DNA of 64,000 nucleotides. It comes from Eledone cirrhosa. Its lineage: Eukaryota. Where the stretch lies: assembly GCA_964016885.1 (NCBI GenBank), contig OZ024740.1:335110001-335174000 (forward strand), in the 5' to 3' direction. Below are positions 156-49,700 of this stretch, piece after piece. Made by a program: the position numbers and the translations under genes. Within the stretch, counting starts at the first letter, position 1. Each line of letters opens with the position of its first letter. The notes under the pieces are model-generated. The model searched no databases. It saw only the letters and a program-made list of their open reading frames with translations, and was not told the origin of the DNA.

Positions 156-425
156 ATTATAAAATATCAGTAGGCTGGACTGGTGTGATTCCTTAACATA
201 CTGAACACGGTCATTGAAATGTTCATAGTATATATAAACCTTTAAGGAATTACACCAGTCCAGCCTCCTGTTATTTTATAATAATTAACTCCGTACTCGC
301 ACCACCAACAACACAAACGAAGACGGGTGAGTTGCATTACGTCGAGTGCTCCCCCTAATATTACATCGAGGTTGACCATATGGAATGACGAGTTCTATCC
401 AGTGGTGGAACCAACAAACCTAAAT
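156..425 (+). mobile_element. PLE-like palindrome + tail (family D)
   Basis: Arms ~156-196 and 242-282, then a unique tail; TA flanks; very degenerate HHR-like core at ~198-231. Confidence 0.55.
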
Positions 426-1441
426 GTATATATATATATATAGTATATATTGTGTATGTTTATGTATGTGTATATATATATATACTAAGAGTGAGAAATG
501 AAATTTCGTTTAATTTTTTCCATATATATATACATTTATGTTTAGTATATATATTTATATTATATATATATGTGGTGTGTGTGCGTGTGCGTGTGCGTGT
601 GCGTGTGCGTGTGCGCGCGCGCGTGTGTGTGTGTGTGTGTGTCTATAAACTTGCGTGCTCATATGTTTGAGTTAGTAGATATTTTGCTTAGAGCATAAAT
701 AATAACACATGCATCCTGTTTACTTGAGCAGAAGGCGCAACATCAAAGCTGTGCCTTCTTTGATGGGGATGATCAGATGTAGAGTAGCTCACCATATCTG
801 CAATATCCCTAATTGAATTTTTCAAGTAGTCTAAACATACTACTGGTAATGATCGTGATGTTGATGTTGGAATTGTTGTTTAGGTGATGTTTGAAGTTGG
901 TGTGGGCGTTGGTACTGGGAGTGGAGGGTGTAGCCTATTGATTATACTACATGTGGTGGACATCCTATTTGTTGTGTTAATAGTGTTAGTGTTGATAACA
1001 GTATGTAGTTGTCTGGATATATTTAACTCTATTATACGTATGTACATGTAATAAATATACATATACATAAATATATATATATACGTGTGTATATATGTGT
1101 GCGTATAAAAAAGTATTAATCAGTATTTGTATATTTCCATAGTAAATGTGTATATACGCTGGCGTCAGTATGTCGATCGTAATTGGGGTATATTTCTGTA
1201 TATGGTTAAAGTGTTCAATACAACTACAAATCATATACGTCTGATATTATTACTATGGAAATTAAAATCTTGTTTTGCTTATGTTGAATTAGATATTTGA
1301 ATTAATTTTAGGATAGAATAATTTATGACTTTGCCTGCACACATATATACATATATAAAAACAAACATCCATACATACATACATACTTACATACATACAT
1401 ATATACATACATACATACTTACACACATACATACATGCATA

Positions 1442-2004
1442 CATGGTGGCTGCCAACTCGTTTTTCGAGTACGTACACTACGTTATATCCATGTAGGAGA
1501 ACCCCTACCGATGCGCTGAACGAGTGTGACTTTTCAGTCCAGCCAGCGACTTGAAAACTCTTGGTACAAACACTACACTTGTCGCAATTATTGACACAGT
1601 GCTGGGCCCATGGTAACATGGGGACGACAAGTGCAGAGAGATCTCCAGATATAAAGCAATGCCTGTGCCGTGAAGCTTTTATAGTGAGCAAAGGCACTGC
1701 ACAAAGCCAGTCCCACTCTCTTAACCAAGATGATATTTACCAAAAAGAAGAACAAGTCAACATCATTGGATACCATCAGGGTTGCAGGTGTTATATCAGA
1801 GTTTTCCTTCTCCTAGAATTCGGCCTTGACAAAGGCTAAGGGGTCATCTCTCCCGGTGATTTTGGATGGCCATTGACTCTTAAGAGCTCCTTTGCCCTTT
1901 GACAGGTTTTGTTTTTAGTCCTGCAGGATGTCCAAAGTCACCCTCCTCACCAAGAAACCTTGGTGGGGTTGCCAGTTTAGTCGCCAACGACCCGACCATG
2001 AGAC
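1442..2004 (-). mobile_element. Non-autonomous RTE-like element (~600 bp) in (CATA)n/(TATG)n
   Basis: Near-identical to 27943-28543 and 60289-60888; minus strand has an RTE-like 5' UTR motif CTAGGAGAAGGAAAACTCTGA and ends GGCAGCCACCATGTATG; no RT. The RTE assignment is from recalled motifs. Confidence 0.7.
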
Positions 2005-2840
2005 TTACACACATACATACATGCATACATATATACATACATAGATACATACAATACATAAGAATGTAATCAATTTGTATACTCATGTATGGACAGAGAA
2101 ACATATGCACATGTAAAGATATAACTTAAACCATACAGATCCACACATGCAATATCATTTATACCAGCGAGTGCACACGCCGAAAAATACAGGCATGATT
2201 TATATACCTAGTTTAAGTTGTATAAATTTCCAATGAAAGAATAATATTTCTACGTTAGACAACGTCTCTCTCTCTCTCTCTCTCACACACACTCTCTTAT
2301 TTTCTTTCTCGCTCTCTCTCTCTCCCTCTCACTCTCTCTCTATCTCACTCTCTCTCTCTCTCTCTCTCTGTTTGTGGATATTTATAAAACAATTTGTTTT
2401 GCAAGGTTTTTTATATGAAATAATTAAACCAAAAAAAAACACACACACACAGACACACACGCACACACACATAAATATATATATATATGTGTGTGTGTGT
2501 GTGTGTGTGTGTGCGTGCGTGTATGCCAATTTAAAGCATCACAACATATACAATATATATGATAAATATGTTTCTCATTGAAAAAGCACATTGGTTGTTT
2601 GTCCAGAGCAGCAATAATTCAAATTTAAAATCATACATGCATATAGTAATATATCGTGAGAAAAACTAGTATTTCTACCTTAAAACATGAGATGTTTCAA
2701 ACATATTGTAATGAGTTTATATACAGATATTATATACACAAATATTATATGATTTGGTACAGAATACAAAAAGTTTCTCTAACGATATATAACTATACAC
2801 ATATATATTTTTTTTTATTGGAATATATATATTTATAAAT

Positions 2841-3034
2841 AACGAAGTAAATGTGGTAAGGAACCAGGTGGACCATAACGCACCAAAGTACTCAATACTT
2901 ACGGTAGTAGAGTAGGTAATAGGAACGAGTACGACCCCGACAGCTGAGCTCAAGCCGTATCGACGGCTAATTCTGGACTGAATTAGCCGTCGAAACTGCT
3001 TGAGCTCAGCCGTCGGGGTCCTACTCGTTCCTAT
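2841..3034 (-). mobile_element. PLE family A palindromic mini-copy (inverted pLTR end + tail)
   Basis: Arms 2919-2974 and 2980-3034; tail matches 22535-22615; TA-rich flanks. Confidence 0.82.
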
Positions 3035-3091
3035 ATTTTTATATATATATATATATATATATATATATATATATATATATATATATATATA

Positions 3092-3738
3092 TAACCACAG
3101 TAAGTAAAGTACTCCGTAGTTACGCCTGGGTACAATCGGGGGGTAACAACAGTAAGTAAAGTACTCAGTAGTTACGCGTGGGTTCAATCGGATATAGCCA
3201 CAGCAAGTAAGATACTCAGTTGTTACGCCTGGGATCAATCGGGAGTAACAACAGTAAGTAAAGTACTCCGTAGTTACGCCTGGGTTCAATCAGGAGTAAC
3301 CACAGTAAGTAAAGTACTCCGTAGTTACGCCAGGGTTCAATCGGGGGTAACCACAGTAAGTAAAGTACTCCGTAGTTACGCCTGGGTTCAATCGGGGGTA
3401 ACCACAGTAAGTAAAGTACTCAGTAGTTACGCCTGCGTTGAATGAAGGGGTAACCACAGTAAGTAAAGTACTCAGTAGTTACGGCTGGGTTCAATCGGGG
3501 CGTAACCACAGTAAGTAAAGTACTCAGTAGTTACGCCTGCGTTCAATCGGGGGGTAACCAAATTATGTAAAGTACTCAGTAGTTACGCCTGGGTTCAATC
3601 GAGAGTAACCACAGTAAGTAAAGTACTCAGTAGTTACGCCTGGGTTCAATCGGGGGTAACCACAGCAAATAAGATACTCAGTAGTTACGCCTGGGCTCAA
3701 TCGGGGGTAACCATAATAAGTAAAGTACTCAGTAGTTA
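3092..3738. repeat. Minisatellite, ~51-bp unit, ~12.5 copies
   Basis: Unit aaccacagtaagtaaagtactcagtagttacgcctgggttcaatcgggggt; period read from 3246/3297/3348. Confidence 0.95.
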
Positions 3739-47980: not shown

Positions 47981-48258
47981 CTCTCTCTCTCTCTCTCTAT
48001 ATATATATATATATATTCATATATATATATATATATAAGATTTGTTTTCTCACATACCCCTCTCTCTGTTTTCTACTCCTCAATTCGTTCCATATTTTCC
48101 CCACTATTTCTTGCCAGACTTCGTCCCTCTAACGTGATGTCATTGATTAGGCCTTTAAACCTCGAGTTCAAGTAAGCGACGGTCATGCATTATTTTTTCT
48201 CATCGACGAAGTCAATTTTTTCCTGCTACTGGCGTCTCGTTTTGAAAACATACATTTG

Positions 48259-48736
48259 CCGATAAAAAAATGTTAAGTGACATAGTCAATTCTTTAGAAA
48301 CGATATCGCAAGGTCTTCAAAATGTTTTAATTAAACATACGGTATATTGCTAAATATACTATACATACATACATGTACATACATGTATACATCGCTATTT
48401 CAGAGCACCAATCCTCATTTTTAATTTTTGCTGGACCGGCAATCGCTCTGTATAATCAGTTCATGATTATTAATGGAATTCTATAAGAATCCAGTCTCTA
48501 TGATGTTCGGCAAAGGCGGGGAGTACGATGCTCTGAGGTTCGCCAACAGCGTGAAACATAATCTGTCAGCTTCTCTCCCTTCTTTTGCCGAAAAAAGAAG
48601 TAAGTGACATAGTCACTACTTTAAAAATGATGGCGCAAGGTCTTCAAAATGTTTTTTATTAAACATATAGTATATTGCCAAATATACTATACATACATTC
48701 ATGTATACATCGCTATTTCAGAACACCAATCCTAAT
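48259..48736 (+). mobile_element. Family F partial direct tandem
   Basis: 48259-48417 is repeated at ~48587-48736; homologous to 12703-13160. Confidence 0.78.
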
Positions 48737-48809
48737 TTATATATATATATATATATATAAAATAAAGTTACATAAAAAGTCAAATGTTTAAAATTTAGCT
48801 TCGTTTATA

Positions 48810-48864
48810 ACTGCTATATATATTTCAGTGACAGCCATCTTTGGCTGTGACCTCTTCAGGCAGT
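48810..48864 (-). ncRNA. Minimal type I HHR (family E), left arm
   Basis: Reverse complement ACUGC-CUGAAGA-GGUCACAGCCA-AAGA-UGGCUGUCACU-GAAA-UAUAUA-UA-GCAGU. Confidence 0.82.
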
Positions 48865-49215
48865 CCGAATTAGTGTGGTATAGACAAGTACATATGTTGT
48901 TGAGGTGTATAATTTTGTCAATACCCTGATATGCCCAGTTCCTGGTTGGGTTGTTATTTCACTCAGGAACTGGAATGTGTTACTCAGTTGGGATTTAGTG
49001 GTTTGACTGATAACATCAAAGATGTTATTTTGTTTCAACCCACATTCGTATATCCCAGGAGCCAACGAATGTTTCATTTACTGTTACGTTTTCTCTTTTT
49101 ATTATTTTATTTCCTCAGTAAAATAACAACCCAACCAGGAACTGGGCATATCAGAGTATTGACAAAATTATACACCTCAACAACATATGTACTTGTCTAT
49201 ACCACACTAATTCGG

Positions 49216-49270
49216 ACTACCTGAAGAGGTCACAGCCAAAGATGGCTGTCACTGAAATATACATAGCAGT
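49216..49270 (+). ncRNA. Minimal type I HHR (family E), right arm
   Basis: Inverted copy of 48810-48864 with substitutions in stems I and III. Confidence 0.75.
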
Positions 49271-49700
49271 AATAAACGAAGCTAAATTTTAAACATTTGA
49301 CATTTTATTTAACTTTATTTTGCATTACTCCGGAGTAACCAAACCAACCTGCGCACTTCGTCGAGTGCTCCGGCCTGCACACTGAGGTGTTGGTATACAA
49401 CCAACATATACTAAAAAAAAAAAAAATACCTTCTTACCCGGAGATTTACCCATTTGCATTGTCGAGGCTTCCAAACGACTTAAAATATATATATATATAT
49501 ATATATATATATTAATATATATATATATATATATATTAATATATATATATATATATATATATATATATATATATATTAATATATATATATTAATATATAT
49601 ATATTAATATATATATATATATTAATATATATATATATATATTAATATATATATATATATATTAATATATATATATATATATATATTTAATATGACACCC

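Follow-up and report, generated by a model that had tools for sequence, protein, structure and literature searches.

Endonuclease-containing (EN+) Penelope-like elements (PLEs) of the Hydra clade have been reported to insert into (TA)n targets with inverted 5'-truncated arms, a hammerhead ribozyme in the pseudo-long terminal repeat (pLTR), a one-sided tail and a Hydra-type endonuclease end (Craig et al., 2021, PMC8557442), and PLE tails, hammerheads and the clade itself are described in the published texts (PMC8557442; Cervera and de la Pena, 2014, PMC4209133). The same features occur in the DNA analyzed here, a stretch of 64,000 nucleotides (nt) of Eledone cirrhosa (GCA_964016885.1, contig OZ024740.1, positions 335,110,001 to 335,174,000 of the forward strand; hereafter, the window). 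This animal DNA is A/T-rich, and (TA)n runs are numerous in it. An initial annotation of the window had singled out a short motif, GAGYRCY, in the 3' tails of seven families (A to G) that it took to be unrelated and otherwise unalignable. We find that GAGYRCY belongs to a predicted RNA hairpin, bulged and conserved (RCUC-Y..(loop)..R-UH-GAGY-RCU), of which it makes up the 3' strand and flank. The hairpin stands in two copies in the leader of Hydra-type elements, one or other of them just behind the points at which inserted copies end.

The tails in the window measure 35 to ~145 nt, compared with 30-40 nt in Craig et al. (2021), whose main text contains neither "hairpin" nor "stem-loop" and describes no tail motif, although its consensi contain the motif. 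A literature search found no description of the hairpin, subscription papers and Repbase notes being outside its reach. The other system that bears on it is PAc, a Poseidon element of the anole, in which reverse transcriptase (RT) starts internally in vitro at two sites that delimit the tail and requires RNA lying 3' of the first start site; the binding site has been narrowed only to a 172-nt region in this one element (Frangieh et al., 2024, PMC11167929).

Judged on the window by itself, the motif exceeds chance only to a moderate degree. All nine motifs quoted in the initial annotation are present at their positions and on their strand, and a 7-mer of the same class (four fixed and three two-fold positions) was shared in just 1 of 207 shuffles of the seven tails. 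The expected enrichment over shuffled tails is therefore present, but modest within the window, and it varies with the families counted: the corresponding figures are 8/603 without E, 33/766 without G, 94/770 without B and E, and 264/842 without E and G. Matches pointing towards a TA run occur at 0.81 per kb, against 0.26 elsewhere, but family A supplies 5 of these 11 matches. The motif is not uniformly kept, being lost in one of the four G copies (9434) and in the second B copy (49775-49830).

The reality of the motif is settled by independent sets. We used 105 Hydra-type loci from outside the window (79 from metagenomes and 26 from a genome collection; 69 families at 85% identity), fetched by protein alone with a 13-protein alignment, the first fetch having kept the best 80 of 568 candidates. 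Among these loci, 31 have no hammerhead in reach, 19 end too early, 28 carry the motif 60-125 nt past the hammerhead and 27 do not; a TA-type run lies in that stretch in 19 of these 27, as expected of tail-less ends. In total, 88 motif sites fall in the two expected zones, after the hammerhead and before the N-terminus. The exact motif also stands at the tail position in three of the six published Hydra consensi (Craig et al., 2021, supplement), some 30 nt short of the 3' terminus in two of them (coral and sea cucumber) and twice before the open reading frame (ORF) in the third. As separate observations on the outside set, loci L080-L105 are animal retroelements on contigs of assemblies titled bacterial, i.e., host DNA carried over, and in L083, L090, L096 and L101 different PLE families (Hydra, Neptune-like) lie head to tail in the same TA runs.

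The unit that recurs is a hairpin. A complementary 4-nt arm lies at most 30 nt upstream in 81 of the 94 plus-strand sites after a hammerhead or before an N-terminus, compared with 10/73 other plus-strand and 17/149 minus-strand motif sites. For the analysis of covariation we assembled 59 distinct hairpins from 35 families of the outside loci, whose consensus order is an A/U-rich patch, GCUC, an upper stem with a loop of varying length, a 2-nt bulge, GAGC and ACU or GCU. The first base of the bulge is always U, and the flank (ACU in 55, GCU in 4) is followed by any base and then by U in 56/59. The three upper pairs took no part in the selection of these hairpins. The first forms in all 59 (35 C-G, 24 U-A; shuffled mean 44.8), the second in 48 (shuffled 26.0) and the third in 43 (shuffled 22.3); all three counts exceed every one of 2000 shuffles, with up to five pair types, and the pairing signal of the upper stem appears solely with a 2-nt bulge. 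The tails thus share more than was first noted: the motif comes with a complementary arm on its 5' side, with a U-H bulge and with an upper stem that covaries. About 19 nt surrounding the motif are also common to D and E. MAFFT left the 5' arms unaligned when given all 59 hairpins, and for this reason the covariance model was seeded with 14 sequences of equal length. This 14-row seed and 92 distinct model-aligned rows (an alignment fitted to the structure) give the same covariation, which is lost when the partners are slid. G-U cells number 7 and A-C cells 1, which weakly favors the sense strand as the folded form.

In full outside loci the leader has the order hammerhead, hairpin 1, hairpin 2 and start codon. 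Hairpin 1 lies 64-109 nt (mostly 72-90) past the hammerhead, and hairpin 2 lies 54-82 nt beyond hairpin 1 and 14-46 nt before the first in-frame ATG. A strict descriptor finds hairpin 2 in 24 of the 28 families with a visible N-terminus; among the other four, one has hairpin 1 intact, two have variants of both (L070 and L091) and one, L058, has none. The variant twin hairpins of L070 (115-215) have a GAGC-TCT flank in both copies, and those of L091 (1750-1850) show a compensatory basal pair, GCAC/GTGC. We then mapped insertion ends in 38 loci with a same-family leader as reference. Sixteen of them could not be mapped (8 unalignable, 4 at a contig end, 3 running in tandem into the next ORF and 1 repeating a flank). 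All 22 mappable independent 3' ends, from 11 families, lie 0-12 nt before a hairpin, 20 of them within 0-7 nt, half before hairpin 1 (tail-less) and half before hairpin 2 (with a tail). Judged from these DNA junctions, the distance from the hairpin to the first copied base is short and fixed, and the ends fall in the A/U-rich patch.

Since inserted copies end a few bases before one or other hairpin, the hairpin likely marks the start of reverse transcription, and protein binding and initiation at this site are likely on the evidence of the DNA ends. We consider it probable that each hairpin of a Hydra element is a docking site 3' of a start, that the A/U patch anneals to a nicked (TA)n primer and that the choice of hairpin decides whether a tail is made. 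Under this model, a read-through transcript of a tandem unit would have at its 3' end the leader of the following copy, the element protein would bind one hairpin, and the endonuclease would nick (TA)n DNA. The nicked strand would then anneal to the A/U-rich patch immediately preceding the hairpin on its 5' side, where cDNA synthesis would begin. Use of hairpin 1 would give a tail-less end, i.e., the pLTR boundary as in the inverted arms; with hairpin 2, hairpin 1 would be copied into DNA and the optional tail would result, the tail being the leader stretch between the two hairpins. Because a start at hairpin 2 copies hairpin 1, tails would carry exactly one hairpin and hairpin 2 would appear only in full 5' leaders. 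A broader proposal, which we put forward tentatively as a serious possibility, is that the duplicated hairpin is the clade-wide initiation signal of Hydra-type RTs. Placed 3' of the template start, it would determine where the pLTR stops as well as where the tail does; it would have been retained in lineages as far apart as corals, sponges, echinoderms and the species of this genome, and other Penelope clades would have counterparts that resemble it in structure but differ in sequence.

PAc offers a parallel, as there too the tail is the RNA between two internal starts, RNA 3' of the first is needed and targets are AT-rich; it differs in its clade, in that its authors put the start in an AC-rich stem loop, and in that its binding motif is undefined (PMC11167929). 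Inspection of the printed PAc template by eye shows a bulged hairpin that begins 2-3 nt past the first start site; its sequence has no identity with that of the Hydra hairpin. The hammerhead is likewise a small conserved RNA structure of the same elements, but it is a separate motif upstream of hairpin 1, and the hairpin has no hammerhead core. Stem-loops that position an RT are found in the epsilon signal of hepadnaviruses, at the 3' ends of L2/CR1 long interspersed nuclear elements (LINEs) and in the elements that flank the template in telomerase RNA. By inference, the Hydra hairpin may belong with these, each being a short stem-loop, bulged or simple, bound by its cognate enzyme beside the first copied base; the likeness is functional only, and the Hydra hairpin differs in lying 3' of the start, in not being copied from that start and in being duplicated, with no sequence likeness shown. 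No such hairpin was present in three cephalopod Naiad 3' ends (two complete) and three Neptune-like ends, which are too few to bound its range.

Several points weigh against the initiation model. The shuffle controls take no account of relatedness, and in the outside set the four basal pairs hardly vary and hence yield no covariation. Among the six published consensi, two show the motif only with one mismatch and no evident arm, and one, noted as lacking a pLTR, has no motif at all. L058 lacks both hairpins, and L070 and L091 have variant forms. A single family contributes half of the mapped ends (11/22), local alignment in A/T-rich sequence was used to place the ends, and for 8 of the 38 queries no reference could be aligned. 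In the window, only family A is linked to a protein, the B, C and F sites and the site at 50174 fail the descriptor, and hairpin 2 is visible in no family; moreover, when the A, D and E stretches are folded in isolation, energy favors a different short hairpin in which the motif pairs with a nearer partner. Finally, in the account of Craig et al. (PMC8557442) the tail results from cleavage by the endonuclease instead.

As the main alternative, the same DNA ends would also be expected if the hairpin were an RNA 3'-end processing signal, with cleavage, by the RNA itself or by a host nuclease, a few bases 5' of it and the RT starting at the new end; the invariant unpaired bases (the bulge U and the flank RCU-N-U) could then be catalytic or contact residues. 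We regard this as unlikely, given that the conserved core is only ~25-35 nt long, that Rfam gave no match at E up to 1 on five loci with both hairpins, and that in the only element examined in vitro copying starts internally, on RNA that is uncut (PMC11167929). An Rfam scan of the window yielded only microsatellite-driven matches among the 150 listed of a total of 175.

It is quite improbable, in turn, that the element acts as DNA or single-stranded cDNA, as a site for the GIY-YIG endonuclease or an internal promoter, with the ends set by TA-like patches only. The tail of Drosophila Penelope is reportedly needed for endonuclease recognition (as cited in PMC11167929), and promoters at the pLTR boundary are on record in other clades (Arkhipova et al., 2013; PMC8557442). 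Nevertheless, the compensatory changes, the fixed 2-nt bulge and the G-U pairs point to a folded single strand, ends joined to unique flanks are fixed at the start of copying and not by a site in the donor DNA, and a promoter leaves both the compensatory base changes and the insertion ends just 5' of each copy unexplained. The position of hairpin 2 shortly before the first ATG would suit a role in translation or RNA stability, with the insertion-end match as a by-product, but such a role does not account for ends that cluster at an equal short distance at both hairpins, and we hold it to be more doubtful still.

RNA dimerisation, in which the self-complementary octamer would pair two RNAs as a kissing or duplex signal, had been suggested from the palindromy of GAGYRCY. 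Several of the copies in the window do form perfect palindromes (GAGTACTC; GAGTGCTC with one wobble), and the anole protein is a predicted dimer (PMC11167929). The palindromy is incidental, however, since GAGCACT, the form of 55 of the 59 outside hairpins, is not self-complementary, the eighth base is C in only 28/59, and GAGY is sequestered in the stem; the suggestion is thus unsupported and dimerisation very improbable. That a short motif chosen post hoc arose by chance has almost nothing to recommend it, as the motif recurs at constant positions in loci and consensi whose selection took no account of it, even though the window-only null reaches 31% without E and G and the B, C and F sites may individually be due to chance or decay. 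Of the roles offered by the initial annotation, a cis signal for RT or endonuclease fits best, the signal being a structured RNA of ~25-65 nt of which GAGYRCY is only the 3' part. A coding reading (motif as x-Ser-Thr/Ala) was rejected, as the motif sits in the leader before the ATG in outside loci, and a tRNA D-arm, a 5S internal promoter, a downstream promoter element and a splice site gave no consistent fit when their consensus sequences were compared by eye.

Turning to the window itself (Table 1), families A to F each show an inverted 5'-truncated arm and a one-sided tail beside TA runs, a layout not seen for G; such short inverted-arm elements are the usual footprint of 5'-truncated PLEs, and they are inserted into (TA)n. 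Hammerhead cores are present in B and E, A has a variant U3-A8 core of a type already described in the text of PMC4209133 (Cervera and de la Pena, 2014), that of C is partial and that of F decayed, and none was seen in D or G in the window.

The families may be less unrelated than had been assumed. Of an ORF with RT and C-terminal GIY-YIG domains the window retains just the 80-aa endonuclease end, whereas outside loci have full ORFs, of 720-750 aa in L001, L050 and L053. This remnant is 42% identical to the full ORF of L001 (E 8e-14); two Neptune-like ORFs matched neither the remnant nor any other part of the window. It has 2544 relatives at E 0.001 or better, with Hydra-clade features that include the CxCX5C linker, which together with the lack of CCHH marks Hydra-type proteins. 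Its 3' untranslated region (UTR) is inverted, 20507-20948 being the reverse complement of 21619-22069, which continues into the family A hammerhead and tail at 22433-22627. As the remnant is joined to A through this inverted 3' UTR, A is a Hydra-clade family. G matches the model made from Hydra-clade loci of other animals, and the assignment of B to G to a clade would follow from hairpin and target alone. Pfam scans of 26 and 137 window frames recovered LINE-type RT domains only and missed the remnant, a word-based homolog search with it gave no match, and viral contigs contained no relative.

The covariance model, built from the 14 outside hairpins only, ranks two G and four A copies of the window at the top (E 1.3e-05 to 0.0014; next 0.38), and the descriptor adds D and E, which have long loops. 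The chance rate of an arm with at least 3 upper pairs upstream of motif sites is 0.3%. The hairpin is full in A, D, E and G and doubtful in B, C and F; the motif is present in the tails of all families as first noted, and the strict hairpin is not. In A, D and E the first pair is changed on both sides, from G-C to A-U, and the G copy at 4275 is the closest to the outside consensus among the window sites. The tail-less inverted arms stop short of the hairpin arm by 5 nt in A and E and by 4 nt in D and F. Tails extend to ~6826 in the A copy at 6755, to ~427 in D and to ~49417-49419 in E. The candidates of B and C both lie 70 nt past the hammerhead GAAAC, that of B probably being a decayed member, and the reduced form of F recurs at 12711-12726 on the minus strand. 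Sequencing reads over 48040-49480 indicate that E and F are high-copy, reads of E tails leave near 49417 into TA repeats, and no majority change falls inside the E or F motif among the read rows listed.

Table 1. Hairpin sites and associated features in the window ("site" gives the motif position in the initial annotation).
Feature	Positions	Strand	Remarks
Family A hairpin 1	6755..6781	+	Site 6775; ACTC arm, 4-pair upper stem, TT bulge, GAGT-ACT; model E 0.00095
Family A hairpin 1, longest copy	22542..22568	+	68 nt past hammerhead GAAAC; model and descriptor
Family A hairpin 1, further copy	4489..4515	+	Model and descriptor
Family A hairpin 1, minus-strand copy	2887..2913	-	Model and descriptor
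Family A hairpin 1, decayed	17548..17574	+	Altered bulge, 2 upper pairs; relaxed-bulge descriptor only, no model match
Family D hairpin	288..350	+	Site 344; ACTC arm, 4 upper pairs, long loop, TC bulge, GAGT-GCT; descriptor
Family E hairpin	49327..49369	+	Site 49363; ACTC arm, two G-U pairs in upper stem, TC bulge, GAGT-GCT; descriptor
Family G hairpin	4275..4303	+	Site 4297; GCTC arm, at least 6 upper pairs, TT bulge, GAGC-ACT; model E 1.3e-05
Family G hairpin, second copy	42998..43030	+	Site 43024; model E 0.0011, descriptor
Family G, decayed	8620..8650	+	Site 8644; motif retained, 5' arm altered; no descriptor match
Family B candidate hairpin	15445..15466	+	Site 15460; ATTC arm pairing via one G-U; fails strict descriptor
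Family C candidate hairpin	8176..8209	+	Site 8203; ACTT arm with wobble, broken upper stem; fails strict descriptor
Family F reduced form	48394..48409	+	Site 48403; 3-pair GCT/AGC stem only; fails strict descriptor
Extra GAGCACT, missed in the initial annotation	50174..50180	+	86 nt before TA run; without complete 5' arm
Family I variant hairpin	43994..44032	+	GTTC/GAAC basal stem, TT bulge; fold -11.0 kcal/mol; without GAGYRCY; found post hoc
Satellite, 51-nt unit, from 3' half of B-like tail	3092..3738	-	Motif kept, 5' arm absent in most units
Family A hammerhead, U3-A8 core variant	22433..22530	+	Upstream of hairpin 1
Family E minimal hammerhead	49221..49275	+	Inverted copy begins 48859, minus strand
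Family B minimal hammerhead	49708..49752	+	
C-terminal remnant of Hydra-clade Penelope-like endonuclease, 80 aa	21374..21613	-	Detected by motif scan

Other observations concern structures related to the hairpin. D and E can each form an alternative 5-pair hairpin with a 6-nt loop (330-351 and 49352-49370) in competition with the bulged hairpin, and the two possibly form a switch. A further family, I (43694-44479), has two direct pLTR copies and a hammerhead-like core. Its spacer opens with the GTTC/GAAC bulged hairpin, which begins directly after the end of the tail-less copy, mapped to 43993, and a second bulged hairpin of other sequence lies near 44108-44130. A weak descriptor match at 13965-14011 on the minus strand (ACTC arm, TC bulge, one upper pair) lies in an unassigned repeat-like stretch. 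The 51-nt satellite comprises 12.6 copies and ends in a TA run; a telomerase-related enzyme that copied a single template segment over and over could have produced it.

The window also contains two further PLE 3' ends (6870-7290, minus strand; 5700-5826, plus strand) with hammerhead cores and a tail-less stop in TA runs, a non-LTR (long terminal repeat) RT frame of 1141 residues (51678-55103, minus strand), and several 90-96% identical fragments of another LINE family (25895-37630 and 57984-64000).

Taken as a whole, the hairpin is a real, phylum-spanning RNA element and apparently an undescribed one. It supplies a rule by which the boundaries of pLTR and tail can be annotated, and it can serve to mark Hydra-clade fragments without coding sequence. 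Among retroelements, PLEs are the closest relatives of telomerase; how they select an internal start and come by an optional tail has been open for two decades, and a 25-35-nt hairpin in two copies behind mapped ends makes the origin of the tail directly testable. If the hairpin is indeed the initiation signal, it would be a portable 30-nt handle with which to program where a telomerase-related enzyme starts copying, and docking at one or other copy would explain the long-puzzling optional tail.

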